Shown here: positions 1,193 through 32,740 of the stretch, in pieces
Numbering within the stretch: position 1 is the first letter of the stretch
Layout of the letters: the number at the start of each line of letters is the position of its first letter
Translations under genes and position numbers: made by a program
The notes under the pieces: model-generated
What the model saw: only the letters and a program-made list of their open reading frames with translations
Database searches by the model: none
Told to the model about the DNA's origin: nothing
DNA from: an uncultured bacterium
GTDB lineage: Bacteria; UBP4; UBA4092
Reading direction: 5' to 3'
NCBI GenBank assembly: GCA_964644695.1
Contig: CAZXWN010000008.1
Location: forward strand, 1-64,000
DNA length: 64,000 bases

Positions 1193-1231
1193 ATTCTTTT
1201 GTCACTTCATTTTTGGTTTTATGATTGTGTT

Positions 1232-2572: not shown

Positions 2573-2690
2573 TTGATATAAACTTTCAACCTTTGAAGCA
2601 ATTTGCCTACTTAGTCAATTTTGCCCACCTTTTCATATCTTTTCACCGTATTATCCTAGAGATATAAGTCTTATTTTTCATATATTCGTT

Positions 2691-2972
2691 ATGAAAAATA
2701 ACATCATAATAATTAAAACTAAAACAAATTGTCTCCGCAAATACCGGAAAACAAGAGGGTTAAACCAAAGAGAGGCGGCAAGTATTTTAGGGCTTCACAG
2801 CACTAGTGTGTTGTCGCGATGGGAACATGGTCAAAGTCTTCCCACCACCCTAAATATTTTAAAGCTTGCGGCTATGTATCGAACGATGGTGGAGGGCTTG
2901 TACATTGACCTAGCCCACGAGATCAAGGAAGAAGTTTTGGAGCAGGAAGAAAAAGTACTCCACCATCATTAA
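2691..2972 (+). CDS. XRE-family helix-turn-helix regulator
   Basis: LRKYRKTRGLNQREAASILG...LSRWEHG..P pattern. Confidence 0.85.
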   Translation: MKNNIIIIKTKTNCLRKYRKTRGLNQREAASILGLHSTSVLSRWEHGQSLPTTLNILKLAAMYRTMVEGLYIDLAHEIKEEVLEQEEKVLHHH

Positions 2973-3074
2973 AAAGCGAAGCTCAATTTATTTAATCAGT
3001 ATCCCCTATTGAACGATACGGATTATTCGATGTAACGATTATATATAAATATATAAACGATTAACGATATAGCG

Positions 3075-3344
3075 ATGACTATTTTTAAAGTTCGCCTAGA
3101 AAATTTCATTCCCCATACGCCCCAAGAATTGTTAGCTGTGGACTTGGCCCGTGATTTGAATGACTCACAAAATCTAGCTTTCTATCTGCACTGCACAAAA
3201 CACTACCCTGAGCCGATTCTGAGAAGTCTGTTTTCTAAAGTTAAAAATGTGCCGGCGGAGAAAATCAAAAAAAGTCGCGGTGCTTTATTTAATTATTTAA
3301 TCCAAAAATATGCCAAATCATCCTCAAATCATTATTTCCATTAA
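3075..3344 (+). CDS. Hypothetical MGE protein, small and helical
   Basis: 89-aa ORF in operon-like arrangement, overlapping the next gene. Confidence 0.65.
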   Translation: MTIFKVRLENFIPHTPQELLAVDLARDLNDSQNLAFYLHCTKHYPEPILRSLFSKVKNVPAEKIKKSRGALFNYLIQKYAKSSSNHYFH

Positions 3345-3819
3345 TCCCGGAACCCGTTATCTGGCATTTGCCATTTTCCATGGGTATGAGCTAAGGGACG
3401 CTCAAATTAAAGCTGTGCGGGGAAAATGGTCTAAAGAGAAATTATGCAAACTAAAAGACATCCTTACTCACCTTATTTATAACCACCAACCAGAGGCTCT
3501 AATCCTGAAGAAGCTTCATCCCTCCAGAAGCTCAAAGTGTCTTAATCAACTGGTGCAGACAATACAAAAGATTGCTCTAATCCAAAAGGTACCAATTTAC
3601 AGTTATTCTCTAAAAGAAGTAAAGTATTCCATCGGTTCAGGCAAGAAAATGAATAAATCTAGTTTATCCGAAATTATCACGACCAAATATCCAATCCTTT
3701 ACTATGAACTGAACCGCTTGAAACATTCTAAAAATAATTATTACATCCGGCTATTTGAAGCAGTAGCTCTCGGAACATTAGGAATATTTCATTATGAAAA
3801 ATCTTTATCCAAAGTTTAA
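3310..3819 (+). CDS. RuvC-like (RNase H fold) protein with degenerate catalytic residues
   Basis: ISINPGT (D>N), LILKK (E>K), FEAVALG; clearly paralogous to the next gene. Confidence 0.75.
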   Translation: MPNHPQIIISINPGTRYLAFAIFHGYELRDAQIKAVRGKWSKEKLCKLKDILTHLIYNHQPEALILKKLHPSRSSKCLNQLVQTIQKIALIQKVPIYSYSLKEVKYSIGSGKKMNKSSLSEIITTKYPILYYELNRLKHSKNNYYIRLFEAVALGTLGIFHYEKSLSKV

Positions 3820-3836
3820 TATTAATCATTAATCGC

Positions 3837-4334
3837 ATGAGCAAAAACAAAATCCAACGGGTCCTGGCAATTGATCCGGGAACTCACCACATGGGAGTGG
3901 CACTTTTTGAAGGAAAAGACCTGATTTACCATGGAGTCAAAAGTATCACCAAACGCACTTCTCCACACATAATTCTTAATGAGGGACGAAAGATCATCCT
4001 AAGCCTGATTAAGGATTATACGTCGAATGTCTTGGTAGTAGAAAAGACCTTCTTTGCTAATAACCGAAATTCCGGATTATTGAATGTCTTTGCCGATGAG
4101 ATTCAATCAATTGGCAAGAGAAAAGGACTCAAAGTATTGTGCTATGCGCCCAGCACTGTTAAAAAAGCTATTTGTGGCTATGGGCTAGCTTCCAAAGAAG
4201 AAGTAGCTAAAGCAGTAGTAGCAAAATATCCATTACTAAAAGTTTACCTAGATCAAGACAGGCAATGGAAGAACCTTTATCATCAGAATATGTTTGATGC
4301 AGTAGCGCTGGGGACAGCTTATTTGAATATGTAA
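3837..4334 (+). CDS. RuvC-like Holliday junction resolvase family nuclease
   Basis: LAIDPGT, VVEKTF, PSTVKKAICGYGLASKEEV, FDAVALG. Confidence 0.85.
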   Translation: MSKNKIQRVLAIDPGTHHMGVALFEGKDLIYHGVKSITKRTSPHIILNEGRKIILSLIKDYTSNVLVVEKTFFANNRNSGLLNVFADEIQSIGKRKGLKVLCYAPSTVKKAICGYGLASKEEVAKAVVAKYPLLKVYLDQDRQWKNLYHQNMFDAVALGTAYLNM

Positions 4335-4410
4335 TCATTATTGACATTNNNNNNNNNNNNNNNNNNNNNNNNNNNNNNNNNNNNNNNNTTAAAAGGAGGT
4401 GAATTAATAT

Positions 4411-4884
4411 ATGTTTGAATCAAAAGAAGAAAAATACACAGAAAAAGATGTATATAATGCTGCGGTTCAAATGAATGGTAAACTTCTGTCCGTAATTCCT
4501 AATGCATATCGTGATGATGAAAGTATTGTACTTAATGCAATAAGACAAAACCCAATATCAATTATGTATGTTTCAAAACGGCTTCGAGCAAGTAAAACCA
4601 TAATGAAGGAGGTAATAAATAGATTTCCCTATGGGTTAAGGTATGCATCAAAAAGGTTAAAAGATGATCCCGAATTGGTATTATTGGCAATTAGTAAAGA
4701 AGGAACTGCATTACGTTATGCTTCTACTAGTATTAGACACAATATAAAAATAGCCATGGTAGCAATATCTCTAGATATAATGTCGTATGAATACTTACCC
4801 AAAAAAATTAAACGCCGCTTATTGTTAAAGCAAACCAATTCTTCCTCTCAGACATTATATAAAAAACCAACTCACGACCTGTAA
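4411..4884 (+). CDS. DUF4116-like repeat protein
   Basis: About 25-aa repeats of the type D..IVL.AI....AL.YAS.RL; AAGGAGG RBS. Confidence 0.75.
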   Translation: MFESKEEKYTEKDVYNAAVQMNGKLLSVIPNAYRDDESIVLNAIRQNPISIMYVSKRLRASKTIMKEVINRFPYGLRYASKRLKDDPELVLLAISKEGTALRYASTSIRHNIKIAMVAISLDIMSYEYLPKKIKRRLLLKQTNSSSQTLYKKPTHDL

Positions 4885-4901
4885 TAACAGGTCGTTTTTT
4901 T
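4874..4901 (+). terminator. Intrinsic terminator
   Basis: ACGACCTGT-AATA-ACAGGTCGT followed by a T run. Confidence 0.75.
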
Positions 4902-5346
4902 ACACTATTATATATATCACCTTATACATTCATACAAAGAGTTTCAAAGCTTTTGAACAAGTTTTCTCAATAATTTGATTATGCAAATCAATGGTTTTCT
5001 CATAGAGAACTACTTTTATCAGTGACTACAAGTCAATAATGCTTTCACTGGCATCAAATATAAACTTCACTTACAACCGCAAACAGCAATGAACCTCCAG
5101 AGCCTCATCTTTCGCAAGTTAACAATTATTGAAGTTTTGCAAAACATTTCTCTTCTTTATACAATTTACCTCGAACTGCAATCTAGTTATTGCTACTTCA
5201 CATAATATTGATTTGATATTTTTAAGCTGCATTTATATTAAAATACCTTAAGTTGGTAACACATAGATATTAATAATTTATTGCATATCAGCTAATATGC
5301 TTTGTTTAATTAACATCATATTAATGGTTTTGAAAAGGAGTGCTTT

Positions 5347-7650
5347 ATGAAAAACAAAGATCCACTATGCTTTATTTCCTACTGTCATGCTGATATAGAA
5401 AGAGTTTTAGTGGAATATATTATATTTACAATTCGACAATCCATGAAAAGCAATATCACTATACTATATGATTCTGATTTAGCGCCTGGAGCTAACCTAT
5501 CTAAATTTATGGAGAAGACTCTTGATGTTGATGTAGCAATATTACTTTTAACTCCTTTATATAAACAAAAGGTCGATAAAAGAGATGGGGGCGTATATAA
5601 AGAATACACTCAAATAAGCAATCGTTATTGGCAGGAACAAGAAAATAAATGTGATTCCGAAATCGCTTTTCCATCCCATGATTTTTCACTAGTTCCAGTT
5701 ATTATTAGTGGAAATGTTTCAGATTCAGTACCAGAAACAATAAGGGATTTATACTGTGTTAATCTCTCAGGATTTACGGTATCGTATGATAAAGAGGGAA
5801 ATTACGTTGTAACTGACTTTATTAAAACGAAATACAATAAAGAAATACAGCGAATTATTGATTGTCTTGTTGCAACTGCAAGCCTAAAATCCAAAGCATT
5901 TGAAGTAGAGAGAGAAAAGCTATACGACACCTTATTTGTAAACACGAAAACCAACGAACAAATTCTTCAAAGATGTCCAGACTTTTTTAAATCAGTTTTT
6001 GTCTCTAATGCTGCTTTTCGTAATATACAGGCTGAACGTTCGTATTTTCTAATTGGACGAAAAGGCAGTGGGAAATCTACATTAGCCACTGCAATTAAAA
6101 TTACGGAGAAAGATCGTTATAATGGTGTTGTGGCTATTAGAGCTGATGACATAAATCTTAACATTTCTTATACAACTATCCGCGCATCAATACAAGCTGA
6201 TATTCAGTCAATATTGCCAGATTTCTCTTTTTATACTTACGTTTGGAAAGGATTTCTATGTTTATGCATTATTGAGTTGCTTGAGCAACTAGATAAAACT
6301 GATAATATTACAAATATCCAAAAAAAACACATGACAGCAATAAAACATTTTATTGACCTTTTTAGAAGAAACCATACTTCAGGAGATCTTAAACCCGTTT
6401 TCTTTACATATTCTGTCCAGAAACTGCAGGACTATTTTGAAAAATGTATTCGTCAGGCAAGAGAAAGTCAGTTTTGGGCTGATTTGTCTATTGCATTTAA
6501 TGAAAGAGAATCTCTCCTGTATTTATTAGGGGAGGATGTTATAGGTGCACTTACAGATATAGTGTCAAATTGTAAAAAAAGAGTTTTATTAACACTTGAT
6601 GATTTTGACACAATTTTTGATACGTTTAGAAGAAAAGCTATTACAAATGAAGATGCACAATTAAGAGCTACTTTTGAAATGGAATGGTTGCGTTCACTAC
6701 TATTATTAATATTAGATTTAAAAGACAGTAGATTAAGTAAACATCCATTATTTAGAACACTTGATTTTTGTGTAACAATTCCCAAGGATCGATATTTAGA
6801 GATTGAAAGAACCGAGCGAGATGCCTATCGATATTCACCAAGAACATCTAGTATTGATTGGTCTGGTATTGAGTTATGTGAAGTATTATTTAAACGATTA
6901 CAAAAAATTGGTGGCTATGAGGATAGTATTCCTGGAAAAATTCACGAAAAATTAAGATACATTCTAAAGATTGAATATCCTAGTCTTCCTGAAGAAATCA
7001 AATTTAACTTTGATGATCAAGAAATTCGCATTCCACTATTCTGTTATATTCTACGCCATACTTTTTGGAGACCTCGTGATATATTAACGTACTATACCGA
7101 TATCTTAGCAGCTGCCACGTCTGTACAAAGATGTGATTACACTCTTACTGATGCTGTTATAAGAAGGATTGTTTCTGAAACAACCTATAAAATAATTAAA
7201 ACAGAATTTTTAGATGAATATAAAACATCTATCAGCAACATTAGGCAAATTGTAAACTGTTTTATGAAAAAATCACAAGTACTTACCTATGATGATATTC
7301 AGAATTGTTTAAAAGATATGCCAATTATATTGAATATCTCTACCCAACCCATAACCACCTTCCAAGATAAAGTAGATTTTCTTTATGACATTGGATTCCT
7401 AGGTGTTATAGTCTCGAAAGAAATACGCGAATCATTAAACCTAGGAACGGATGAGGCTTTCTATTTTAATGAAGGTAGGACACCAATTCGTACTGCATGT
7501 AAATGCGACTTTCGTGATGTAAAGTTTGCAATACACCCAATATTCAGCGAAAACCTTCAATTAATTCATCGTAACAACACTTTTTTGCACCAATATACTT
7601 GGCAATATTTATATGATAATCATATAATTAAAACCTCAACGTTTATATAA
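5347..7650 (+). CDS. TIR/SEFIR domain fused to a P-loop ATPase (Sll1717/FunZ-like); candidate antiphage protein
   Basis: FISYCH, ILLLTPLY..K, GGVYKE (TIR); Walker A GRKGSGKS; Walker B LTLDDFD; RPRD motif; AAGGAG RBS. Confidence 0.8.
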   Translation: MKNKDPLCFISYCHADIERVLVEYIIFTIRQSMKSNITILYDSDLAPGANLSKFMEKTLDVDVAILLLTPLYKQKVDKRDGGVYKEYTQISNRYWQEQENKCDSEIAFPSHDFSLVPVIISGNVSDSVPETIRDLYCVNLSGFTVSYDKEGNYVVTDFIKTKYNKEIQRIIDCLVATASLKSKAFEVEREKLYDTLFVNTKTNEQILQRCPDFFKSVFVSNAAFRNIQAERSYFLIGRKGSGKSTLATAIKITEKDRYNGVVAIRADDINLNISYTTIRASIQADIQSILPDFSFYTYVWKGFLCLCIIELLEQLDKTDNITNIQKKHMTAIKHFIDLFRRNHTSGDLKPVFFTYSVQKLQDYFEKCIRQARESQFWADLSIAFNERESLLYLLGEDVIGALTDIVSNCKKRVLLTLDDFDTIFDTFRRKAITNEDAQLRATFEMEWLRSLLLLILDLKDSRLSKHPLFRTLDFCVTIPKDRYLEIERTERDAYRYSPRTSSIDWSGIELCEVLFKRLQKIGGYEDSIPGKIHEKLRYILKIEYPSLPEEIKFNFDDQEIRIPLFCYILRHTFWRPRDILTYYTDILAAATSVQRCDYTLTDAVIRRIVSETTYKIIKTEFLDEYKTSISNIRQIVNCFMKKSQVLTYDDIQNCLKDMPIILNISTQPITTFQDKVDFLYDIGFLGVIVSKEIRESLNLGTDEAFYFNEGRTPIRTACKCDFRDVKFAIHPIFSENLQLIHRNNTFLHQYTWQYLYDNHIIKTSTFI

Positions 7651-8862
7651 AAGTAAAAATTAATTTATACAGAGAAAATCTTACCTACCCTTGGTAAATC
7701 ATCTTTTATTTTTGTATGCATTAGTTTATTAGATAGTACATATTAAAACTTCACAACAGCGTAATTTATAAAGTGAACCAAAAAATTGATATAGAGCATT
7801 CTCCACGTTGGGCAGTTTTAAAATCGGTTATATTTCATTTAAATTGTCCTAAGAAAATTCTTTCAACATAATTAGAACGCAAAAGAATATGTGCGGTCAT
7901 CACAATCACTAATCAACTAAGCTATTTTACCGAGTTTTAGCTATTTGATTTTCATAGAGTTTATGCAATTAAAAATAACATTAATATTATCGAGACATCC
8001 AAAACTAGTTTTCCAGGTTCCTAAGATAAACAACTTTGTTCTTCTATCGTACTTAACTCAATGTTATTTATGACAATTGTATCCTTCTATTATGATTTTT
8101 CTTTTTTTAAACCCGATATTATATTGAGCAGAAATTCTTTATGATAAATAGTTCTCCCCTAGACTTCTGTGAAAGCGTAAAAAAATTCAACGAAAAGAAC
8201 GTGGCCGACGTTCACCTCACCCGAGTCGCTCACAAGGAAAGAGAACTACTTTATCCCAAAATTACTCATATTCGGCATCTGCGTTGCTCCCTTGGAAACT
8301 TATTCTCAGAATGCCCATATTAGTATAGTCATCTATATAACCTTCAAATCAGAAACATATTACAAGTTTAATGCCGCTTTAATGTTTCAATGCTTAGTCC
8401 AATCGGCACTCAGAAATGTGTGAATAATTTAACTAACACTAAGAGACTCTGACTAATAACCAAGTTCGAACGTAAACCCATTATGAGGCAAGCTTTTACA
8501 CACATAGATTGTAGATAAATTCCCGCAGACATCGCTGAAGAATTTTTGTTAAATCTCTGCTACTAAGAAAGATCTGGACAGAGCTGTCAGAAAACATAAC
8601 AATTAAATATTTCCTACTCTGTTATGAACCGAATAATTTTAGCTGAAGCCATTTTATAGCTGTAGCTTTGGGGACGGTAGAAATATTCCAGTATGATAAA
8701 TATTGCTCAAGATTCAAATAATAACCTATGCCAGAGAAAATTTTGATTGGATATTTTTAGGTTTATGAACTGAATGTATTTAACTCGCTCGTAATGTTCT
8801 AGCATTGTCTATGAGCATACTTGATACATAGAAATAAAGTAAGATAATGATAAATTTATAAT

Positions 8863-8925
8863 ACTTGCATAAATTCTTTAAATCAGATTATAAAACCGCT
8901 GTTCTACCAGCCGATCACTTCAGCA
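8863..8925 (-). repeat. Degenerate copy of the tRNA-Thr 5' half and att arm found at 15622-15685
   Basis: Manual alignment gives 52/64 identities to 15622-15685, same orientation. Confidence 0.8.
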
Positions 8926-9325
8926 GTATCAATTTCTTTAATTTCTTCTTATGTATTTTCCTTGGAAATATTTATTGACTACTGTTTGTATTTGGTCTAA
9001 TTATATGACCGCGTTTTGCACACATATAGTAGGTGGCAATTTGAATAACGCATAGTCATTTTTATACTCATTTGTTGTACAGTTCGCAGGACTTACTTCT
9101 TCCTAATTAAGTTTTAGCAAAACACTTGCCACGCACCAACATCCAATACTGGCAGGGATTGAAGCAGGTTGATCTAAATTAAAGTATTTAAGTCAAATAT
9201 ATAAGTTCCACGCATTCAAAGTAGGGCTTTTTTACTTGATTACTTTTCATAGTGTCTAGTTCAATAACTTTATTAAACCATGTTAAGATTAGAACGTTCA
9301 ATCTCTTTACATTGACATTCACTTT

Positions 9326-11908
9326 ATGACTTTCAATATGGATGACTTAAATTATCAAATACAAGAAACAGTAGAGATGGGCAAGAGAAATCTTGAAACA
9401 CTCAATCTTGCGAGGAATTTCTGTAAATATTTTACGGCTGAGAAAGCACCTTGGCGTGGTTCTGGGCTGGTTGAGCAAATAACAGGGCTACCAACTGGCT
9501 TTATGATTTGTAAGTGCAAATTTGCCCGCAACCCCGGCGGAATAAGTAGCACGATATTTGAGGACGTTGCATTAAATTTTTATGAGAATAACTGTATTGA
9601 CTGTGATAAGCGTGAACCATTGAATATTCCCAATTTGTTGATGCTGGTAGAAAAGAGGAAAAAAAGAGAAAAAGAGGCTCAAATAGAGAAAGATACCAAT
9701 GAAGTTATGAAATCCAATAAATTGGCTATTCGAAAAGATAAAAGAGCTAAGTTCAAAACTTCTGATCAGTCACATAATTCAATATTAGATTTAATAGATA
9801 AAGTAGATACGAATTCTCAGGAAAACAGAAATAATCTAATTGAGACAGCAAAGATAGCGCCGGAAAAGTTTGACTCAGGCATTCAGGAGGCCCTTTTTGA
9901 TTTAATAGATACGGCAGAGTTATTAAAGGCGGAATGCGCAATACAAGTTCTAACTTTAATTGCCAATAAGGGGCAGCTACTTGAATCTGAGGGGGTAATT
10001 CCTATTGTACCTTCTAATGAGTGTAAGTCTGTTGATTTAGATAGATTATTAACTGCATCACTAAAAGCATTAGATGATGGTTCTGGTTATAGTGAGGCGG
10101 CTACAGTTATTGAGTTTTGGTTCAATAAAAGATACTGTAATCTTTTATCCAATAATGCGATTAATACATTAATTTATATTTCTTATCCGGCAAGTCCAAT
10201 GTCTTTTGTGGAGACAGGAGTTTTTAAGCGGCCCGGGCCTTTACTAAAAGTCTATGATATTTGTCCAGATAAAGTCCTATCCACTATTCAAGATCAATTA
10301 CAAATTGATGAAAAATATACAAGAATATCTGCATGTGGTGCAGCAAAGACCATTATACTAATTGATAGCCAGTTCGGCATTAAAATTTCCGATTCATTAA
10401 TTAAGTCTCTACGCCTTCGAGATGATCATTACAATGGATCCTCTGCACGTACTATTGCTACAGACATATTAGCTATGGCCTTCATCCGTAAACATAGTGA
10501 GATAGATAGGATAATACAAGAAAGCATTGAAGTAGCTGATTCTAATTTAAAAGGAGAGATATTCTCAGTTTACGGTATGGTGCTGAGTCGTAAGGAAAAT
10601 GAGGATATTCCCGAAGAAATTGTGAATTTAGCTATTAAAAGAGTTTTAGACACTCTGATTATCAGTCCCAATGATAAACGAATGGAGAAGGCTTCAAAGA
10701 TTTTGCGTTTTTTAGAACATAAAAATCTTACATGTCTAATTGGACATGAAAAGCTTTTATTGGGTGCAGCAGCACAGCTTTCTCAAGAACTAGAGTCCCC
10801 CAACAATACAATTATCGAGCCAGGACTTGATAGTGTCGCTAAGTTTTTTGAAATACAATCTAAACATATGCATCTCAACTCTGCATTAGATTCAATTAGT
10901 AGAATTATAGGAGATTTAGGCGCTTTATATCCCCTATCCATAGGTAACGAGGTTGTACAACATATCAATAATCTTAAAGATAGAAATTTTCGATTTAAGA
11001 GTATGCTTATAACCTCTCTTGGGCGTATTGGATCCACAAACGAAGGCTTGCCATTAGTTTTACCAATTCTTTATTCTGGATTTGTTGACAATAATGTATT
11101 GGTTAGGCATTCAGCAATTAAAGCCTATGGAAAATTAATGGTAAACAATTCGGACAGCCTACCTACAATATTACACGAGTTGTTTTGCGCTTCATTAAGT
11201 GATCCATATGTAATAGTTCATAAGCAGGCTGTTTATACATTAATGGAATTGTATCATTTTAAAGAAGACTATGTTTCTATAATAAAAAATAATTTACTAT
11301 TATTAATACTTACCTATTATCAAAACCGTAGCGACTTAAGTTTTCTTTCAGAATGTATTAAGGAATTACTTAGATTCCAACCAATTAATTTAAAACTTGC
11401 GAAATTTGTCTTAGGTAAAGTTCATATTCTAGATCCTTATGATAGAGTTAGTGTATTACGCTGTTACAGTGGAAAATTAAGAGAAATTGAGGGTTTCTCT
11501 TTCGAAATAGCAAAGTTGTTAAGTGAAGAGTATTTATATGATCTAAATTTGGATGAAGTTGTGGAAATGATTAAAGATTTACCTGAAGTTGAAATATCTA
11601 AAATCGGTGATGTCTTAGAATCAGGTATTAAAAAGTTAATTAACCATAGACTTTACTATATTTCATTAGAAATAATTGAATTTTTGTCATTAGCCTCATG
11701 CTGGGATACGGTTTTAAGAGTAATCGATTTCTTTGTTAATTCAATTGAAGACACAATTCCAAACAAAGATTTAAAACTGAGGGTACAATCTTATCAAATA
11801 GCCTGTAGATTAGAATCAGCTATTTTTCTAAAAAACAGCAACGAAATTGAGAGATACTGTCACGAATGGAATTTTATTTTAGATAGGATAGAAAAAATTC
11901 AACAATGA
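9326..11908 (+). CDS. Large alpha-solenoid (HEAT/ARM-like) protein with a Cys-rich N-terminus
   Basis: FCKYF..CKCKF..CIDC near the N-terminus; HEAT-like units EKYTRISACGA, NVLVRHSAIKAYG, DPYVIVHKQAV. Confidence 0.75.
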   Translation: MTFNMDDLNYQIQETVEMGKRNLETLNLARNFCKYFTAEKAPWRGSGLVEQITGLPTGFMICKCKFARNPGGISSTIFEDVALNFYENNCIDCDKREPLNIPNLLMLVEKRKKREKEAQIEKDTNEVMKSNKLAIRKDKRAKFKTSDQSHNSILDLIDKVDTNSQENRNNLIETAKIAPEKFDSGIQEALFDLIDTAELLKAECAIQVLTLIANKGQLLESEGVIPIVPSNECKSVDLDRLLTASLKALDDGSGYSEAATVIEFWFNKRYCNLLSNNAINTLIYISYPASPMSFVETGVFKRPGPLLKVYDICPDKVLSTIQDQLQIDEKYTRISACGAAKTIILIDSQFGIKISDSLIKSLRLRDDHYNGSSARTIATDILAMAFIRKHSEIDRIIQESIEVADSNLKGEIFSVYGMVLSRKENEDIPEEIVNLAIKRVLDTLIISPNDKRMEKASKILRFLEHKNLTCLIGHEKLLLGAAAQLSQELESPNNTIIEPGLDSVAKFFEIQSKHMHLNSALDSISRIIGDLGALYPLSIGNEVVQHINNLKDRNFRFKSMLITSLGRIGSTNEGLPLVLPILYSGFVDNNVLVRHSAIKAYGKLMVNNSDSLPTILHELFCASLSDPYVIVHKQAVYTLMELYHFKEDYVSIIKNNLLLLILTYYQNRSDLSFLSECIKELLRFQPINLKLAKFVLGKVHILDPYDRVSVLRCYSGKLREIEGFSFEIAKLLSEEYLYDLNLDEVVEMIKDLPEVEISKIGDVLESGIKKLINHRLYYISLEIIEFLSLASCWDTVLRVIDFFVNSIEDTIPNKDLKLRVQSYQIACRLESAIFLKNSNEIERYCHEWNFILDRIEKIQQ

Positions 11909-13359
11909 GAATACAGAGTGATGATATTTTTTTAGAGGCATATAATTCCCGGGTTAATATTGTTAGATCCCTATCTAAAATAAAGGATGAATCCGATTCA
12001 GAGTCCTTAGTTAATAGTATCCTTAATGACATTGATAGAATAATTGAATTGTTAGGCAAGAATCCTATTAGCAGAGTATATCTCGCTTATAAAGACTTAG
12101 TGGTCGCTTACCAATGCTTGGCACAATGGAAAAAGGCAATAAGAAATGCAACAGTGGATGCCGATCGTTTTCATAGGGCATACATGGAAAATGTTAAAGA
12201 TGCAAGAAAAAAGATTAAAGAATTAAGATATGCCAAGGAGTTATTTAATATTCTTTCCTTGATGGAGACGATCAATACTACTGATGATATTAATATGGCA
12301 TTAGAATCTTTGTCGTCTTTATCGCTTCCATTACCCATTTATCGAGAACTAAAACCAGAATTGAAGAATAACCACCATTCAGGATTGAATGGAAGTGAAG
12401 AAAAAGAGATTGTTGCCTTTTTGGAGTTCAAAGTTAACAATGAAAACCTCCAATTTCCACATATTATAGAACCAAATAAGTTATATGACTTAAATATTAA
12501 AATTCGTATTAATAAATGGGCAAATAACGCAGAAAAGATAATAATCCAGCCGTTATCAAGTATTTCACCAGAGAACTATGAGATGCCAACTTTTGAGTTT
12601 CCTAAAGATGAGTCAATAAACACTTATCAGCAAACAAAAAAAATGTGCTTAAAGGTTGAGCAGTCGCTTGAATCTCAACCATTAGAATTTGTATATCAAG
12701 CATATTTACTTCCTATGAACCTTACTGTTTCTATTACTGGCATGAATAGAATAAATATTAGAAGTGAATCGGATGGAAAACTTTTAATATCAGGATATGA
12801 GATTGCAGATAGATCCTTATCCTCAATACGGAGAACCCTATACAAAGAACCAAGTCTTTCGCAAAAGCAAAAAAGGAATTTTTTACTAATAATGAAACAT
12901 CTGGCCAATATCGCAGGTCAAGCATTGGCTTCTAACGACTTTCCTAATGACTGGGAGGAGAAAAACTTTCAACATGAAATTAGAAAAAGGTTACGTCAAA
13001 TACCTGAAATAGGAAGTGATTTGCTTGAACATCCTCATGCTGCCGGAGGCATTACCGATCTTTTCTTTAACAAGTTGCACCTTGAATTGAAAGTTGTCAA
13101 AGATTATTTGGTTACTTTAGATAATGCTGTTTCATTTTCACAACAAGCAGCTCAATATACGACAGGTTGTGATAATCAATTAGGAGTTATATGTATTTTG
13201 GATTGTTCTGAAAAAAAAGAAGCACCTGGTTCGTTAGCAAATGATATTGGTTTAAAATATATACCTGCACCAGGTGTTACAACAAGTGGTTTTCCTTTGA
13301 TATTGGGTGTGATCATAATTAGAGGCAATTTACCCCCTCCCAGTTCATTCAGTAAATAA
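11905..13359 (+). CDS. Protein with a C-terminal restriction-endonuclease-like PD-(D/E)XK domain
   Basis: EKNFQ...GGITDL...LELK...QAAQY...GVICILD; ATGA overlap with the upstream gene. Confidence 0.7.
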   Translation: MRIQSDDIFLEAYNSRVNIVRSLSKIKDESDSESLVNSILNDIDRIIELLGKNPISRVYLAYKDLVVAYQCLAQWKKAIRNATVDADRFHRAYMENVKDARKKIKELRYAKELFNILSLMETINTTDDINMALESLSSLSLPLPIYRELKPELKNNHHSGLNGSEEKEIVAFLEFKVNNENLQFPHIIEPNKLYDLNIKIRINKWANNAEKIIIQPLSSISPENYEMPTFEFPKDESINTYQQTKKMCLKVEQSLESQPLEFVYQAYLLPMNLTVSITGMNRINIRSESDGKLLISGYEIADRSLSSIRRTLYKEPSLSQKQKRNFLLIMKHLANIAGQALASNDFPNDWEEKNFQHEIRKRLRQIPEIGSDLLEHPHAAGGITDLFFNKLHLELKVVKDYLVTLDNAVSFSQQAAQYTTGCDNQLGVICILDCSEKKEAPGSLANDIGLKYIPAPGVTTSGFPLILGVIIIRGNLPPPSSFSK

Positions 13360-13373
13360 ATATCATTCTTAAA

Positions 13374-15479
13374 TTAATTCGAACATTTCCCAAGATTGGT
13401 TCTTAATAATGAACTTCTATTTGTCCAAAACGGCCCGAGTACCGACGACTCAATTACTTTCTGACTTACACTAGGATTAGTATATTTCGAGCAAGGACAA
13501 GATTCATACTCAGCACCGCAGTTAGAACATTGAGAGCTTTTGATAATATTAGCAATCGCAGCGGATAATTCTCCAGATTGGATTTTTGCACATAGGCTCA
13601 CATTATCTTCCGGTATGAGATAATCCATTAGTAGTTGCTTTTCACTTGGCTTAAAACAATATTCATCTGGATTCAAAAAACACCTTTTAAATTCTAGAAT
13701 ACCTGTATCTTGCATGATATTTTGAAGTTTGGGTTTATCCATTGAATTTGGATAGATAATTGCCAAAATTTTTGCAGCATTTTCACACCATTCCCCCAAT
13801 TGTTGAACATTCGATGGCAATGTGGAATAAGGAGATTGGTACCACATTGCTAAATCTTGAATATGTCCCGCAAAAGATAATACAACATCTCTATCTTCAT
13901 ATTGTATTTCCAAGGTGTATGATAGGATTCTATCTATTCCTTTATGGTTCCATGTAGAACATAATTGTTTTACAGCATCTTGTGTTTTTATTGCAAGCTT
14001 TACGGCATTTAAACCAGTATGATGTACTGTTGGGAAATTAGTTACTGCATCTTCGAATGCAATTTCGGTTAAATATTCGGGCATTTCAATTGACTCATGC
14101 ATATGATGAAGGATTTTTATTAGTTCAAAGGTATCCGCCTCTACATAAGGAATAATCTGAGCATTTCTTCGTATTTGACTATGAGATTTAATAAAGCGTT
14201 CGCTGGAAGAACCTTTAATCTGTGGAGAATACGAGACAGCAATACGAATTCCCTCATCTTTATTTAAATTACAAGGTATGTATTCTTCTAGTGGAAAATT
14301 ATTTTTTGAATCACTTAATTGAGGTTCTACGTGGTCAGTTACCTCAACACCTTTAAAGTATTCACCCACCAGATGGTTGTCTCTATAGTAATGAGTAATG
14401 AGTTCTTTCCAAAAAGGAATGCTTATAACACCATCAATCCTCCATAGTTTTGTATATTCTGATTTGCGTTCTACATGGTCTATAGTTTTATCTAATCGTT
14501 GAATCATTGTCGCTTCAGTATACATTCTTATCGCACCATCTAAATGGGTTGGAGCTAATGTAGTTGTGTCCAACATGGAGTGGACAAATCGACACCCAAA
14601 TCTGTCGTTTCCTATCCCTATACTTGGGAGATCGCGAATTTCTTCACATTCAAAAGTCCTCTTTGAATCCTGAATATACCAGCCAAATTCGGTCCTGGAA
14701 ATACCATGATAAAATTTCATTTCTTCTGATGCATTATGAACCGTTACTCCAGTAGGAATAGACTCCAAATCAGATGTAAACCTCGGACCCCACCAATACT
14801 CCAATTCTATTGATGGACGAAAAGTAGTAGCTAATCCAATCATATCTTCATCTAATGCAATTCGGATATTTAAGCCCTTTTCATCCTCAATGCTCAATAG
14901 TGTTTTAAAAAAAGGAACATTTAATGTATTGTGACGAGAAAGTGAACGTCGAAAAAACGGATGCGCAAATAACAATAATCCATTCTTTTCAAATACGCCT
15001 GGGTATTTTTGGTTCAATAACCGAATTGGAATAAGACCATCATCATCCTTTTGGGAAAAAATCTCAGGAAATGCCTTTTTTGCTAATCCTTCACTGCATA
15101 TCGAAGCACTATCAGCACAAAACGCATCTTCATTACCCGTCAGATGAGGACTTAATAACTTTTCAAACTCATTCATGTGCGGTGCAACTGTTTCTTTAAT
15201 ATGCTTTTTAAAACGTTTACTTGCAACGCTATCTATAAATACTCTCTCATTTTCGTTATCTGGAATTAGACATCTACCTACCAAACGAACAAGTCCTGGT
15301 TCGATATACAGAGATCTTCCATGCGTCCAACCCATACAACGGTGATAATCATGACTTAGATATAAAGGAATACCATATTCCCATGATTGATCTAAACAGG
15401 ACGCTAGGCAACTTACAGTAAACTCACTACCATATCGATTAACTTGGTTACTGTTAAAAACTGCAAGAAAATTTTTCAT
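13374..15479 (-). CDS. 701-aa hypothetical protein with a C-terminal CxxC...CxC motif; ends resemble phage prohead protease segments
   Basis: Long AT-rich ORF; N-terminal NRYG..F...PLYLSHD...G; C-terminal KIQSGEL...CSNCG...CPC. Confidence 0.7.
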   Translation of the reverse strand: MKNFLAVFNSNQVNRYGSEFTVSCLASCLDQSWEYGIPLYLSHDYHRCMGWTHGRSLYIEPGLVRLVGRCLIPDNENERVFIDSVASKRFKKHIKETVAPHMNEFEKLLSPHLTGNEDAFCADSASICSEGLAKKAFPEIFSQKDDDGLIPIRLLNQKYPGVFEKNGLLLFAHPFFRRSLSRHNTLNVPFFKTLLSIEDEKGLNIRIALDEDMIGLATTFRPSIELEYWWGPRFTSDLESIPTGVTVHNASEEMKFYHGISRTEFGWYIQDSKRTFECEEIRDLPSIGIGNDRFGCRFVHSMLDTTTLAPTHLDGAIRMYTEATMIQRLDKTIDHVERKSEYTKLWRIDGVISIPFWKELITHYYRDNHLVGEYFKGVEVTDHVEPQLSDSKNNFPLEEYIPCNLNKDEGIRIAVSYSPQIKGSSSERFIKSHSQIRRNAQIIPYVEADTFELIKILHHMHESIEMPEYLTEIAFEDAVTNFPTVHHTGLNAVKLAIKTQDAVKQLCSTWNHKGIDRILSYTLEIQYEDRDVVLSFAGHIQDLAMWYQSPYSTLPSNVQQLGEWCENAAKILAIIYPNSMDKPKLQNIMQDTGILEFKRCFLNPDEYCFKPSEKQLLMDYLIPEDNVSLCAKIQSGELSAAIANIIKSSQCSNCGAEYESCPCSKYTNPSVSQKVIESSVLGPFWTNRSSLLRTNLGKCSN

Positions 15480-15508
15480 ATTATATTCTTAGGATAATAT
15501 CATTCTGG

Positions 15509-15646
15509 TGTCCAAATAGTGTCCATAAGAAAGCTAAAATAAGTATAATTGAGATAACAGAAACATATCAAGAAACAAAGGTAAGATATTAATAAAAAAA
15601 GACTTATGCTGATTTCATTACACTTGCATAAGTCTTCTAAATCGGA
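15509..15646. mobile_element. att-arm-like region next to the tRNA fragment
   Basis: Direct repeat GTGTCCA-AATA-GTGTCCA (about 15509-15526), resembling tyrosine-integrase arm sites; inverted repeat AAGACTTATGC..GCATAAGTCTT (15599-15636) followed by a T run on the minus strand. Confidence 0.6.
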
Positions 15647-15684
15647 TTACGAAACCGTTGCTCTACCAGCTGAGCTACTTCAGC
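15647..15684 (-). pseudogene. 5' half of tRNA-Thr(CGT), truncated after the anticodon loop (att remnant)
   Basis: Minus strand reads GCTGAAGTAGCTCAGCTGGTAGAGCAACGGT-TTCGTAA: acceptor 5' strand, D arm and CGT anticodon. No T arm (GTTC) and no 3' acceptor strand follow. Confidence 0.85.
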
Positions 15685-15804
15685 ACCAATCGTGGACTTT
15701 ATATTTTAACCGAAATAGGCGTCTTGGGAAAGATAACAATATACTTCAATGGATAAATTTATGTAGCAATTTATGATTATTACTCCACTTTATGAACACT
15801 CTAG

Positions 15805-18039
15805 TTATTTCACATACTTGAGGATTTTATCTAAGACACAATATGTTTCAGGAACATCAAGTTTTGTTGTGATAAAGTTTAGTTCTCTCAGTGGTTCATT
15901 AAGAAATTTGTCGTGCTTTTCAAATACCTTTTGTTCTATTTTTAAGGCCATTTCATGAGAATCTATCAACTTTTCTTTTATGACACGACTTAAATAATCT
16001 GCGATCATCTCCACTTCAACATCATGAATAGTAAGTGAGATGCTATCATATTCAACCTTAAATTTTTTCGTTATTAAAAAAAGAGCTAGTGTATACATAA
16101 CCTTATCCCCACACCAGGGAAAGATCATTGTAGCATTTGATAATTGAACAAAATATTTATCAAATAAACCATATTTATTGAAAGAAGAGACCCCTTCATC
16201 AAATAGTTTTAATGCATCAACATTCAGGTATTTAGGTGCTAAATTAGACCGATATATTTGGTACATTCCCTCTCGAATTTTACTATCAATATTTATTCCG
16301 GCCCCATAGAATACTGGAGGCTTTCCACCTTTTGCTGGAATCATATAGACAATCATTTTCTCTGAATCGACAGAGGTCACTTTCCAATATTTACCAGCAA
16401 ATATTAGGAACATATCTGCTACCGGTGGAAAGAATATTGGCATGGTACCTAAAAAATTATTATCTGCATAAAGTTTGTATTCATCAGGAGTTGTAAAAGC
16501 ACTGTAAAAATCATAGTCATTTACCAAACGTTCACCAGCCCAACCAAGTACAATTTCGCCACTTGTTGTTTGATTGATTAAACTATACTCTCCCATAGAG
16601 CGTAAAACAGCAGAAAACATTTCTGAAGAAACTTGATCAAAGGGCCCTGTTTCGCATAAAGTTTTCCAGGTTATATAAGCATTTACAGCTCCATATTGGC
16701 AAATCATAGACAGTATCTGTTGGATTAATGTTGAAAAATGGTAATTATTACTATTGGGAGATTCAACCCAACCTTCTAACAAAAGATTGACAACAGCAAT
16801 AGTCTGAAATAATTCAGCCCTAAGACTATCTTGAGGCCTTACTTTTTCACTCATTTTTTCTTCTGTTATGTAAATACGCAAAATTGAAGGTTCCCCACGT
16901 CGACCAGAACGGCCTAAGCGTTGCCGTAAACTAGATACTGATGGGGGTGTCCCAATTTGGGCAATACTTTTTACTGTTCCAATATCAATACCCATCTCCA
17001 AAGTAGCTGTACAAATAGCTGTTGCTGGTCTTGATTTATCTTTTAGAAAAGTTTCAGTCTCTTCTCGTATTGCCTTTGAAAGGTTTCCATGGTGCGGATA
17101 AAATTCGCGAGGCATATTGTGTAAATCACAAAGAGAGGTAAGCTTTGCCGTATAAATTTCAGTAACTGCCTTTTGGTTAGTGAAAATTAAATTTGTATTA
17201 CCCCGAAGTGTGGAAAACAAGTGTTCTGTTATTCGGTTAACTGCATTATTATATTCATCAACAGGAGGGGGTGACACAGATATTCCGGCTGAAACCAATA
17301 AGTTAGGTGATTCATAACCACGAACTTGAAGATGAATGTCTTGCTTTCCCAGCGATGACTTAATTGGAATGAATGGATAAACTACATTGGGTCTTAAAAA
17401 TTCCTTAGCATAATCCATATTTCCCAATGTAGCGCTTAAACCAATTCGGGGGATGCGTTTTTTTGTCACAGTTTCAACCCTATGGAGCAAAGACTGTAAT
17501 TGCCGCCCTCTCTCAGTTCCAATAAATGAATGTAACTCATCAATCACTACATATTGAAGATTTCTAAATAATAAAGGTATTATTGTTCCATGTATCATGA
17601 AAATTGCTTCCAATGACTCTGGAGTAATAATAAGTATTTTTGACGGTTTTTTTAGAAACTTTTTTTTCCGGTCTGATGATACATCTCCATGCCATTTAAA
17701 AACAGCTATATCAAGAGTCTCTCCAAATTTACTAAGTCGATCATACTGATCATTTATAAGTGCTTTCAGAGGACTTACATAAAGACATTGAATTCCTTGT
17801 GCATCGTCACCGATTAATTTAGAAAATATCGGCAGGAAAGCTGCCTCAGTTTTACCTGCTGCAGTAGAGGCAGAAATAATAACATCAGTATTAGCAGACA
17901 ATATTGGAGATACTGCTGCTTCCTGTGCATCTCTTAATTCTGTCCAATTTTGTTCCCACAACCAGCGTTGTACTTTTTCATGCAGTTTGTAGAAAGCAAC
18001 CGATTCTTGATCTTTAGAGCTTGAATGTGGTGAGGTCAT
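15805..18039 (-). CDS. sngC: Lhr-like DEAD/DEAH helicase (Shango SngC-like)
   Basis: TAAGKT, DELH, SAT, HHGNLS, TATLEMGIDIG, QRLGRSGRR. Confidence 0.85.
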   Translation of the reverse strand: MTSPHSSSKDQESVAFYKLHEKVQRWLWEQNWTELRDAQEAAVSPILSANTDVIISASTAAGKTEAAFLPIFSKLIGDDAQGIQCLYVSPLKALINDQYDRLSKFGETLDIAVFKWHGDVSSDRKKKFLKKPSKILIITPESLEAIFMIHGTIIPLLFRNLQYVVIDELHSFIGTERGRQLQSLLHRVETVTKKRIPRIGLSATLGNMDYAKEFLRPNVVYPFIPIKSSLGKQDIHLQVRGYESPNLLVSAGISVSPPPVDEYNNAVNRITEHLFSTLRGNTNLIFTNQKAVTEIYTAKLTSLCDLHNMPREFYPHHGNLSKAIREETETFLKDKSRPATAICTATLEMGIDIGTVKSIAQIGTPPSVSSLRQRLGRSGRRGEPSILRIYITEEKMSEKVRPQDSLRAELFQTIAVVNLLLEGWVESPNSNNYHFSTLIQQILSMICQYGAVNAYITWKTLCETGPFDQVSSEMFSAVLRSMGEYSLINQTTSGEIVLGWAGERLVNDYDFYSAFTTPDEYKLYADNNFLGTMPIFFPPVADMFLIFAGKYWKVTSVDSEKMIVYMIPAKGGKPPVFYGAGINIDSKIREGMYQIYRSNLAPKYLNVDALKLFDEGVSSFNKYGLFDKYFVQLSNATMIFPWCGDKVMYTLALFLITKKFKVEYDSISLTIHDVEVEMIADYLSRVIKEKLIDSHEMALKIEQKVFEKHDKFLNEPLRELNFITTKLDVPETYCVLDKILKYVK

Positions 18040-19369
18040 TATCTGTACTAATTTTACTTACTCCATTTGATGTTTCATTTAGAGATAACTCATCGACAAA
18101 CACGTCATCTTGTACAGTCTCAACATCCTGCTCAACTTGAATATCCTTAAGCATGTTTTCCCATGACAAAAAGGTGTTTTTCTCTAAAACACTAAGAAGA
18201 TCAATAAAAGAACGGGTAGTACTTCGTGGAGTACGAAAATAGGCGTCTCCAATTCTCTTGGAACAATGAGACATAAATGCTGTAAGAGCTTCATCTGGAA
18301 CCAAATATTTAGAAGAATCTCCCACAGCATAAACATGTCTTAATTTTGTCAGTAATATATATAAATCTTCCTTGGTTAAGTTAGCTAAACGAACAACGGG
18401 CCCACTTTGATCTATGATTCCAGCCGTTTTTGCAAAAGTATTTTCTGCCAATCTTGTTTGAAGTGCTTGATAACTATAAAGACCTCTTCGGGTATCCATT
18501 AAGAATTCCGGGGTTCCACAGAAAATAAACCCAATATTAGTAGTTGCTCCCTGCAAGCAGTCATTTAAGATTCTAAGAATCTGTTCATAGTTAGCGTTTC
18601 TTGCTTGTGTATTAGCAAGTTTATATAGGTTTACCATTTCATCTAAGCCAATTAACAACCCACTGTAACCAGCCAATTTAATAAATATTGCCATTAATTT
18701 TAAATAATCATATATATTTGCATCATCAATGATAGTTCTAACTCCTAAAGCGGCTTTTGCATCCGTCTTAGTTGTATACTCCGCTCTAAGCCAACGTATA
18801 GCATCACTTTTTAACTGTTCATTTCCCATATCGTAAGCTTTCCAATATGACGAAATAACATGTGCAAAATCATATCCACCAGACATCTCACTAAGAATAG
18901 ACAAACGTTCGTATATTACAGATTCTACAGGCTGTTGTTTTTCTTTGGATTCGGTCAAAGCAGAACATATAAAACGTTCAACAATACTTGGCAATGCGCC
19001 ACCATCAGGCTTCGTACGGGTAGATAAGTTTTTCATCAGCTCTACAAATAAATTTCTAGCTTGCCCACCAGTAGCATGTATACGACGATCTGGAGTTAAA
19101 TCAGCATGTGCAGTGACTACATTTTTTTCAATTGCTATAGAACGTACAAGATGAAGAAAAAATGTCTTACCTGATCCATATTCACCAATAATAAACCTTA
19201 TAGAAGAACCCCCATCCGAAATTCTGTTTATGTCCATGAGAAGACTCTCTATTTCAAGGACTCTACCAACCTGGATATGCTGCAAACCAATGCGCGGAAC
19301 AACACCTGCTCGCAAGGATTGAATAATAGTATCTCTTTCCTTTTGTCGTATTTTTATATTTGTCATCAT
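18014..19369 (-). CDS. sngB: DUF2791/BrxD-like P-loop ATPase (Shango SngB-like)
   Basis: SLRAGVVP, GEYGSGKT, LLIGLDE, SYQALQTRL. Confidence 0.85.
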   Translation of the reverse strand: MMTNIKIRQKERDTIIQSLRAGVVPRIGLQHIQVGRVLEIESLLMDINRISDGGSSIRFIIGEYGSGKTFFLHLVRSIAIEKNVVTAHADLTPDRRIHATGGQARNLFVELMKNLSTRTKPDGGALPSIVERFICSALTESKEKQQPVESVIYERLSILSEMSGGYDFAHVISSYWKAYDMGNEQLKSDAIRWLRAEYTTKTDAKAALGVRTIIDDANIYDYLKLMAIFIKLAGYSGLLIGLDEMVNLYKLANTQARNANYEQILRILNDCLQGATTNIGFIFCGTPEFLMDTRRGLYSYQALQTRLAENTFAKTAGIIDQSGPVVRLANLTKEDLYILLTKLRHVYAVGDSSKYLVPDEALTAFMSHCSKRIGDAYFRTPRSTTRSFIDLLSVLEKNTFLSWENMLKDIQVEQDVETVQDDVFVDELSLNETSNGVSKISTDNDLTTFKL

Positions 19370-21717: not shown

Positions 21718-21753
21718 ACCATATTCAATTTACTTATTGATTTTTATTACACT

Positions 21754-22596
21754 TTATATTTTTCTATTCTCTCCGACAGATTTATGGATGAAGTGTTTCA
21801 TTTGTTCCAGGACCTTTTTGTTATCAATATAGAGGGCATCTTCATGGGACCCTTTAAGAGTCACAAATTCTTTAGGTGAGTTCGCAGCATTATAGAGGTC
21901 CTGTCCATGATGGAAGGGGATAATATCATCCTGAGGACTGTGTCCAATCAGAACAGGGCAATGGATGGTTTTCATTTTGGAGAGGGAATCATATTTCGTT
22001 CGGAGTAACCACCGAATCGGCAGGAACGGATAGATATCCTGACTGGCCCGATAAACCGAAGTAAAAGAATCAATGACAATCAGGCCGGCAGGTTTGATGC
22101 GTGATGCCAGGTCAACAGCCACCGCACCTCCCAATGATTCACCGTAACAGATGAGTTTATTCGGGTCCACATCCTTACGGGTCTTCAGGTAATCCACCGC
22201 CGCCAGTGCATCCCGGTATGTCCCCTCTTCGGAAGGTTCCCCTTCACTTTTCCCGAATCCCCGATAATCGAAAATAAAGATATTGATTCCCAAATCATGC
22301 AGATGTTTCAGTCCAGATACCCGGTCTCCGATATTTCCGGCATTCCCATGACAAAATATCAAAGTCGCCGCTGGTTTATCCGCTGGAATAAACCAACCAT
22401 TGATTTTGACTTTGTCTTGAGTCACCAAAGTCACCTCATCGAATTGCATGGAGAGCATCCCCGGCGTCATAGAGACATGTTTCTCCGGATAGAAAATCTG
22501 CTTCTTTTCGAAATGACCGGCAAATATAACCAGCGCGATAAATAATACAAGCAGGACACTTAATTCAATAAGGATACGCTTCGTTGTTTTATTCAT
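21754..22596 (-). CDS. Membrane-anchored alpha/beta hydrolase (ABHD13/BEM46-like)
   Basis: HGNAGN, DYRGFG, GESLGG nucleophile elbow, DDIIP, GSH. Confidence 0.9.
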   Translation of the reverse strand: MNKTTKRILIELSVLLVLFIALVIFAGHFEKKQIFYPEKHVSMTPGMLSMQFDEVTLVTQDKVKINGWFIPADKPAATLIFCHGNAGNIGDRVSGLKHLHDLGINIFIFDYRGFGKSEGEPSEEGTYRDALAAVDYLKTRKDVDPNKLICYGESLGGAVAVDLASRIKPAGLIVIDSFTSVYRASQDIYPFLPIRWLLRTKYDSLSKMKTIHCPVLIGHSPQDDIIPFHHGQDLYNAANSPKEFVTLKGSHEDALYIDNKKVLEQMKHFIHKSVGENRKI

Positions 22597-32452: not shown

Positions 32453-32647
32453 CGCTTCTTTGAACAAAGAATATTAATAATCTAACTCAGTATTTTCAAT
32501 TAAATAAACATAAATCCATAACAGCGCTATTCTGCCACCTTCTTATTGCCTTGTATTTTAAGGATTATCCGTTTATTTCTGCTGATAAAACAATGTAACC
32601 AATATTTAACATAACAAGCTTGACACCATTTGCTATTATTGGATATA

Positions 32648-32740
32648 TTTGTTGAAAAGAACAGGCGGCTCCGAACTTTCGGAGTGCAGCTGGGCCAGAA
32701 TCATCAGGCAGCAGGTAAAAGCCCTGTGGGACTTACAAAA
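32648..32740 (+). ncRNA. NiCo (czcD) metal-sensing riboswitch
   Basis: GAACAGGC-[CTCCGAA/TTCGGAG stem]-TGCAGCTGGGCC...GGCAGCAG...CTGTGGGAC matches the conserved NiCo blocks as I recall them; lies upstream of a P-type ATPase. Confidence 0.85.

Follow-up and report, generated by a model that had tools for sequence, protein, structure and literature searches.

A probable divergent Olokun gene pair, with a conserved four-cysteine module in its OloA-like protein, in a defence island of an uncultured UBP4 bacterium

We analysed a 64,000-nucleotide (nt) stretch of an uncultured bacterium (GTDB lineage UBP4; UBA4092), namely positions 1 to 64,000 of contig CAZXWN010000008.1 in GenBank assembly GCA_964644695.1; this whole stretch is called the window below. 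Two overlapping genes at 9326–13359 on its forward strand very probably form a divergent member of the Olokun system, oloA followed by oloB, and they make up a real defence module of two genes that appears intact. An earlier note, written from the DNA letters alone, had described the pair as a sensor-effector module and had not recognised it as a named system. The module itself stood: a helical-repeat partner, a D...ExK...QxxxY nuclease motif, the lack of a nucleoside triphosphatase (NTPase) and the location in a defence island were all recovered. Its novelty as a system did not, since both proteins and every relative tested match the Olokun models of PADLOC.

The name Olokun reportedly goes back to Millman et al. 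2022. PMC10121019 credits it to its own reference 7. The value of the present finding for discovery is small, as Olokun is already named and its first biochemistry has been published. Its value for annotation lies in a long-branch clade whose members, where named at all, are labelled 'hypothetical protein', with Pfam and NCBIfam missing both window proteins. To Olokun, itself poorly understood, the analysis adds a four-cysteine module that is strictly conserved in OloA, natural OloA–OloB fusions that argue against release of the nuclease from its partner, and a residue-level prediction of the interface between the two proteins. The genes and their junction are located as follows.

9326–11908, forward strand: oloA-like gene, 860 amino acids (aa), 97.8 kDa, HEAT/adaptin-like solenoid (open reading frame (ORF), PADLOC OloA, AlphaFold2 (AF2) and Foldseek)
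11905–13359, forward strand: oloB-like gene, 484 aa, 55.1 kDa (ORF and PADLOC OloB)
11905–11908, forward strand: ATGA stop/start overlap of the oloA-like and oloB-like genes (read from the sequence)

At the junction, caacaATGAgaata, the stop codon of the oloA-like gene shares 4 nt with the start of the oloB-like gene, and the ATGA-coupled pair of an 860-aa Cys-rich helical-repeat protein and a 484-aa protein reported in the earlier note was found as described. The AT-richness reported there was likewise borne out: GC content is 0.30–0.355 at 9001–13000, in a low-GC block of about 4000–22000, against 0.42–0.50 in the flanking core. Both ORFs are real rather than chance frames, because homologues reach expect (E) values of 4.4e-208 for the OloB-like and 2.2e-270 for the OloA-like protein. 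Neither protein contains a Walker A motif, in line with the note's remark that no NTPase was visible, and a Walker A-like regular expression matched just one of 135 family representatives. On neither strand of the 1.7 kb of AT-rich DNA upstream of the oloA-like gene (7651–9325) does any ORF exceed 60 aa. A promoter scan was uninformative, with 19 sites against 22.7 expected.

Homology of the pair to Olokun

PADLOC was used as a library of hidden Markov models (HMMs) against which single proteins were scanned. The OloA-like protein matched the OloA model (PDLC03925) at an E value of 2.7e-15, over residues 77–639 and profile positions 22–409 of 596, and the OloB-like protein matched the OloB model (PDLC03926) at 1.1e-14, over residues 168–440 and profile positions 122–455 of 556. 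The earlier note had listed a match to a named system among the outcomes that would refute it, and these two model matches supply one.

The relatives of both proteins behaved in the same way. A word-indexed search with the OloB-like protein gave 62 clusters including the query, all of them 'hypothetical protein' where a source name was given; 35 of the 62 were aligned, and all 35 matched the OloB model (best 3.8e-41). Within the window's own genome the oloB-like gene was the sole match to the OloB model, and none of 14 control genomes contained one. For the OloA-like protein, nine clusters including the query were recovered, all nine matching the OloA model when aligned (best 2.4e-19). Used in a full HMMER scan, their profile gave 1647 representative proteins at E ≤ 0.001, of which 804 lay at ≤ 1e-10 and 442 at ≤ 1e-30. 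The OloA model matched all 43 proteins sampled from the best 150 of these representatives, at E values from 8.9e-7 to 6.8e-52. Representatives of about 850 aa matched nearly the whole of the 596-position OloA profile, roughly from position 10 to position 545, and about 850 aa is therefore the normal size of the protein. These results show that the two window proteins are homologous to OloA and OloB.

A search of 41 genomes recovered the OloB-like protein from one, the genome of the window itself, and from none of 40 relatives. This distribution fits accessory, transferred DNA. Against plasmids, tblastn with the OloB-like protein gave a single partial match (27% coverage), which lay in a Rhizobium record that bears no annotation.

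The window pair resembles Olokun in several further respects. The partner gene comes first and the nuclease gene second, both PADLOC models match, and the pair is located in a defence island. Its partner protein is adaptin/HEAT-like and lacks a Walker A motif, and its putative nuclease combines an N-terminal helical domain, through which contact is predicted, with a C-terminal D...ExK domain. It differs in that its nearest relatives lie in records of Planctomycetota, Acidobacteriota and Myxococcota and in that it sits on a long branch.

Domain architecture and predicted contact of the two proteins

Six regions of the two proteins were delimited from alignments, profile matches and models.

9326–9640, forward strand: N-terminal conserved module of the OloA-like protein, about residues 1–105, with invariant C33/C64/C90/C93 (alignments and AF2 model)
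10934–11293, forward strand: clearest HEAT repeats, about residues 537–656 (sub-threshold Pfam and PDB profile matches)
11582–11890, forward strand: C-terminal helices of the OloA-like protein, residues 753–855, predicted to hold the OloB-like N-terminal domain (predicted interface)
11920–12318, forward strand: N-terminal helical bundle of the OloB-like protein, residues 6–138, predicted docking domain (AF2 and predicted interface)
12412–12765, forward strand: middle beta-sandwich, residues 170–287
12799–13356, forward strand: C-terminal alpha/beta domain, residues 299–484, with a PD-(D/E)XK-type motif (invariant residues and model)

The AF2 model of the OloA-like protein, built from an 84-row alignment, is an almost all-helical solenoid with a predicted local distance difference test score (pLDDT) of 94.0 and a predicted template modelling score (pTM) of 0.86. 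Pfam gave sub-threshold matches only, to HEAT, HEAT_2 and Cnd1, the HEAT match lying at residues 549–656. A PDB profile search matched HEAT-type alphaRep proteins at positions 537–604 of 872 (best E 6.4e-15). The profile of the OloA family also matched alphaRep HEAT proteins in the PDB (5.6e-13) and, weakly, the beta adaptins of AP-1/2/3 (0.004–0.1); the Pfam domain Adaptin_N (PF01602) was present in one OloA-like relative. In Foldseek the top matches of the model were SF3B1, CAND1 and the importin-beta family (E ~1e-6). The overall fold is like that of eukaryotic HEAT solenoids (importin-beta, CAND1, SF3B1 and AP adaptin beta), a likeness of fold only, with template modelling (TM) scores of 0.15–0.32 and 10–14% identity, and the four-cysteine module is missing in them. 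The helical repeats proposed in the earlier note were thus recovered as HEAT repeats, and the modelled OloA-like protein has the adaptin-like helical solenoid of OloA.

The best-conserved stretch of the OloA family is its N-terminal 100 residues. The OloA-like protein has cysteines at 33, 62, 64, 90 and 93, the Cys-rich N-terminus that had been seen before. C33, C64, C90 and C93 are present in all 84 aligned family members; in a 136-sequence alignment limited to members of at least 780 aa they occur in 129, 132, 135 and 135 sequences, respectively, the rest being gaps. C62 is not conserved across the family alignment. The other invariant residues of the 84 rows are N22, P56, R136, R140, D161, R594, P613, D626 and E830. 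In the AF2 model the N-terminus forms a small alpha/beta unit (helix 5–32, strands 37–40 and 60–63, helix 78–90). A four-cysteine metal site would be the obvious reading of this pattern of residues. The words 'zinc', 'cysteine' and 'iron-sulfur' are absent from the main text of 10.1101/2025.07.10.664194, whose figures and supplements may show the site. A bolder idea, possible if rather unlikely, is that the module forms a zinc or iron-sulfur centre and acts as the real sensor or switch of Olokun, the HEAT solenoid being scaffold only. The fused single-chain clade described below would be the handiest form in which to probe metal-centre sensing.

The OloB-like protein was modelled from a 35-row alignment (pLDDT 84.2, pTM 0.59). 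Its AF2 helices at 6–26, 32–50, 54–80, 87–105, 111–121 and 126–138 form a bundle that corresponds, in the model, to OloB's N-terminal helical domain; a disordered linker (149–166) separates it from the beta-sandwich. The ending described in the earlier note as E...TD...ELK...QxxQY was located as E352 ... ITD385 ... E394-L-K396 ... Q414-x-x-Q417-Y418, with D433 and K437 in addition. E352, D385, E394, K396, Q414 and Y418 are invariant in the 35 aligned homologues and Q417 is conserved in at least 90%. The C-terminal domain is built of helix 352–364, strands 373–375, 386–388 and 391–398, helix 407–422 and strand 426–433. E352 opens its helix, D385 directly precedes the second strand or begins it, the third strand carries E394 and K396, and the helix after it carries Q414 and Y418. 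This alpha-beta-beta-beta-alpha-beta order is that expected for a PD-(D/E)XK core. The residues also resemble 'GxhD / hhExK / QxxxY', which we take to be the motifs of the RecB/Cas4-like family, a likeness that serves as no test. The C-terminal domain is consistent with a PD-(D/E)XK-type fold, albeit not independently confirmed.

Whole-chain Foldseek of the OloB-like model gave Integrator subunits and STATs (TM 0.11–0.26), matches driven by the helical bundle and the beta-sandwich. VIA-align placed helical bundles over residues 3–149 and one row on 167–288. In the ESM Atlas the protein fell among unnamed clusters; a lead at 0.79 to a cluster with 15% PDDEXK_9 was too weak and was left unused.

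A genome scan with a 16-row OloB-like alignment found nine loci, in Planctomycetota, Acidobacteriota and Thermoanaerobaculia metagenome-assembled genomes (MAGs) and in an isolate of Enhygromyxa salina (Myxococcota). In eight of the nine, all with a full-length OloB-like relative, an OloA-like gene lies directly upstream or is fused; the ninth has a C-terminal OloB-like match of 113 residues only. In six of the eight full-length loci the genes are split at the same place, with an A ORF that extends about 47–56 nt past the start of the B gene, and at two loci (L004 and L008) they are joined into single A–B ORFs of 1308 and 1358 aa. The OloA-like gene of locus L006 occupies two ORFs. Among the best 150 representatives of the HMMER scan, 14 had fused length (1286–1360 aa) and the other 136 had not; all six fused-length representatives that were scanned matched both OloA and OloB. 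Both arrangements therefore occur, the split one being the commoner, which answers the fused-or-split question raised in the earlier note. Because of this conserved pairing, the split loci and the natural fusions, the two proteins are functionally linked and a frameshift artefact at the junction is unlikely.

We predicted the complex, as the note had suggested, from residues 20–860 of the OloA-like and residues 1–150 of the OloB-like protein, with alignments built here. The interface score ipSAE was 0.70, 0.70 and 0.71, against 0.00 for the best control. Of 157 solved complexes 116 attained the interface mark, as did 2 of 215 mismatched pairs, a calibration that is approximate for the alignments used here. 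The runs shared at least 84% of contacts, and the pLDDT of the partner was at least 79. Residues 753–855 of the OloA-like protein are predicted to contact residues 7–24, 54–58, 108–112 and 137–146 of the OloB-like protein. The predicted interface includes E830 of the former together with R16, L141 and P142 of the latter, which are invariant or nearly so in the 35-row alignment. The natural fusions join the same ends that are in predicted contact, the A C-terminus and the B N-terminus. No Olokun relative was found in the PDB by sequence with the OloA-like, OloB-like or C-terminal-domain profiles, so the interface score is unlikely to stem from a memorised solved complex. In silico only, as the confidence of a model and no measurement, the contact of OloA with OloB is thus recovered in the window pair.

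Proposed mechanism and alternative explanations

In the scheme that we propose, the 98-kDa OloA-like HEAT solenoid, which bears the strictly conserved N-terminal four-cysteine module, would use its last helices (about 753–855) to hold the helical bundle at the N-terminus of the 55-kDa OloB-like protein. By analogy with the studied Olokun, two heterodimers may pair and bring their C-terminal PD-(D/E)XK-type nuclease domains side by side, and the paired domains may cut invading phage DNA. The OloA-like protein would serve as scaffold, regulator or sensor, and no NTP hydrolysis would be involved. For the window pair we only infer nuclease activity, 2:2 stoichiometry, a DNA target, a trigger, metal binding by the cysteines and phage protection.

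The analogy draws on the main text of 10.1101/2025.07.10.664194, which places Olokun in the PD-(D/E)XK class with OloB as the PD-(D/E)XK nuclease. The complex studied there was about 278 kDa and was interpreted as 2:2 OloA–OloB; the window pair, in contrast, comes to 152.9 kDa per heterodimer and 306 kDa as 2:2. According to the same text the subunits make contact via OloB's N-terminal helical domain, as in our prediction, and the two nuclease domains are predicted side by side; the complex was lost upon active-site mutation. [quoted passage not shown] The studied Olokun was active only at 1 uM, and its in-vitro cleavage patterns matched in-vivo defence only partly (10.1101/2025.07.10.664194).

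Several results weigh against the assignment of the pair to Olokun and of its second protein to the nucleases. The PADLOC matches are moderate, at about 52–55 bits with about 56–65% of protein and profile covered; it is from these figures that we place the pair on a long branch. NCBIfam gave no match for either protein, and Pfam gave none for the OloB-like protein. The OloA model also matched two of the 14 control genomes at E ≤ 0.001, and weak matches to this model are by themselves unspecific. The genome-level OloA match in the window, at 9557–10807, corresponds to residues 78–494; it is not a generic HEAT match, because these residues precede the HEAT repeats. At its C-terminus (window 11860–11960) the OloA-like protein lacks about 16 residues that close relatives have; their conserved tail (...RRxFFRGIRLPR) is encoded across the oloB start in another frame. 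Because of the shorter end, the overlap in the window is confined to ATGA. A Pfam scan of the OloB-like relatives found a nuclease family in 0 of 35, with matches at chance level only, and a sequence search of the PDB with the OloB-like and C-terminal-domain profiles found no solved structure. Comparison of the C-terminal domain by hhalign with PDDEXK_1, represented by a 28-sequence alignment built from genome matches, gave a probability of 0.15–0.44% and no aligned catalytic motif, and the domain is therefore not placeable in the RecB/Cas4-like family by sequence. No nuclease appeared among the whole-chain fold matches of the OloB-like model, in which the C-terminal domain was barely sampled. 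Finally, six of the eight related loci have a PADLOC-family neighbour, a count taken without a background set and hence no measure of enrichment.

The moderate PADLOC scores would also be expected if the pair belonged to a sister family with the same architecture and another role, such as DNA repair, plasmid or mobile-element maintenance, or action on another target such as RNA. In keeping with such a family, the clade lies in Planctomycetota, Acidobacteriota and Myxococcota, unlike the studied systems, whose hosts are Pseudomonas and E. coli, and two of the eight related loci have no PADLOC neighbour at E ≤ 1e-8. We nevertheless consider it improbable: the scores of the relatives rise continuously and with no gap to 6.8e-52 (OloA) and 3.8e-41 (OloB), the window pair is located in a defence island, the neighbours at the other six loci include type I restriction and a CBASS cluster, and a gene as sporadic as this one (1 of 41 genomes) is ill-suited to a housekeeping role. 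Nearly as improbable, with Olokun ancestry retained, is an abortive-infection logic like that of a toxin-antitoxin pair, in which OloA would inhibit a toxic OloB until a phage cue frees it to destroy host and phage DNA alike. The tight coupling of the genes with the partner gene first, the way in which the partner wraps the N-terminal domain of the nuclease in the model, and the high protein concentration and only partial agreement with in-vivo defence reported for cleavage in vitro in the main text of 10.1101/2025.07.10.664194 would all suit that logic. However, a natural single-chain A–B fusion cannot release its nuclease from its partner, and the active-site mutations described in that text abolished the complex and freed no stable nuclease.

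The existence of fused forms of 1286–1360 aa likewise raises the question of whether the window holds a single gene for a fusion of about 1340 aa, broken at ATGA by a frameshift or sequencing error. That is very improbable indeed and we rejected it: the six related loci split at the same place do so with an overlap of about 47–56 nt, the 136 best representatives noted above are not of fused length, and the OloB-like protein starts with the conserved MR... N-terminus of its family. Divergent Olokun thus remains the preferred assignment of the pair.

Two other named systems were considered and rejected. The last 182 residues of the OloB-like protein matched the last 195 positions of the PADLOC model of Lamassu LmuA (PDLC03853) at E 2e-8, and 33 of the 35 OloB-like relatives matched that model as well (best 7.2e-20). 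The likeness to LmuA is confined to the OloB-like C-terminal domain; in contrast to Lamassu, the partner of the OloB-like protein is a HEAT solenoid and not an SMC-like LmuB, and a scan of 12 neighbouring ORFs gave no LmuB match at E ≤ 0.001. Membership in Lamassu was rejected on these two grounds. The STAND sensors of Avs/AVAST likewise combine a repeat-rich putative sensor with a restriction-endonuclease-type effector and exist in single-chain forms; the window pair, unlike them, lacks a STAND NTPase. With no Walker A in either protein and no Avs model matched in PADLOC, Avs membership was rejected too.

Genomic neighbourhood

The earlier note's placement of the pair between a TIR-ATPase and a Shango-like operon was correct. 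Upstream, a 767-aa gene at 5347–7650 (forward strand) encodes an N-terminal TIR_2 domain (E 5.1e-5, below the Pfam cut-off) and AAA_16, and its product matches PADLOC bSEFIR at 9.4e-15. Downstream lies a complete Shango operon at 15805–21717 (reverse strand), with matches to SngC (9.3e-255), SngB (5.3e-182) and SngA (6.1e-75), the last carrying TerB_N/TerB/TerB_C domains.

The note had further placed the segment between two tRNA-Thr att-like remnants, and this claim held only in part. ARAGORN found no tRNA in the window and Rfam none at the gathering score; a permissive Rfam scan gave one match, at 15625–15684 (reverse strand), of 27.2 bits against a cut-off of 29. The match is a 46-nt 5' fragment (15640–15684) that ends after the anticodon arm, with the anticodon loop TTCGTAA of Thr(CGT), and it shares 96% identity with an intact gene for tRNA-Thr(CGT), that of contig C7. 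There is no second copy of its D arm in the window, and no direct repeat of at least 18 nt bracketing the pair was found. The fragment is flanked by a 701-aa ORF and Shango and so forms no boundary of the pair. A 5' rather than a 3' tRNA fragment is unusual for an integration scar.

That 701-aa ORF, at 13374–15479 (reverse strand), is convergent with the oloB-like gene, with 14 nt between the stop codons. It had no Pfam, PADLOC or Atlas match. Its family comprises 478 clusters at E ≤ 0.001 from several phyla; the members listed are mostly of about 690–700 aa, unnamed or 'hypothetical', and carry no precomputed Pfam domain. The ORF is a candidate uncharacterised single-gene cargo of the island.

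The flanks of the eight related loci (84 ORFs) were scanned against PADLOC at E ≤ 1e-8, with the following neighbours found.

L001: a weak DRT-type match
L002: a type I restriction subunit and PDC-M45
L004: CBASS cyclases, SAVED nuclease, HORMA, TRIP13 and a mad8-like ATPase
L006: RecD-like and mad8-like proteins
L007: an NsnB/AriA-like ATPase
L008: capP and capH

The flanks of L003 and L005 gave no match at that threshold. These neighbourhoods are compatible with residence in defence islands. At L004, in a Thermoanaerobaculia MAG, a CBASS-type cluster at 16386–21247 (reverse strand) lies downstream of the fused Olokun-like gene, at a distance of about 5 kb, and consists of two cyclases, a SAVED-nuclease effector, two HORMA proteins and TRIP13.

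In the window, the stretch 1199–4884 (forward strand) starts with a HerA/TrwB-like ATPase (PADLOC mad8, 8.5e-19), followed by tandem small RuvC-like ORFs at 3310–3819 (E 6e-4) and 3837–4334 (E 7e-12) and a DUF4116 protein. At L004 and L006, too, mad8-like ATPases are located upstream of the Olokun-like genes, less than 10 kb away; this recurrence may be coincidence or reflect a shared mobile backbone. The start of the window (3–734, reverse strand) holds an open frame of 258 aa with a PDDEXK_1-family match (E 2.9e-26), and a NiCo (nickel/cobalt) riboswitch was found at 32647–32736 (forward strand), at 43.3 bits against a gathering score of 37.

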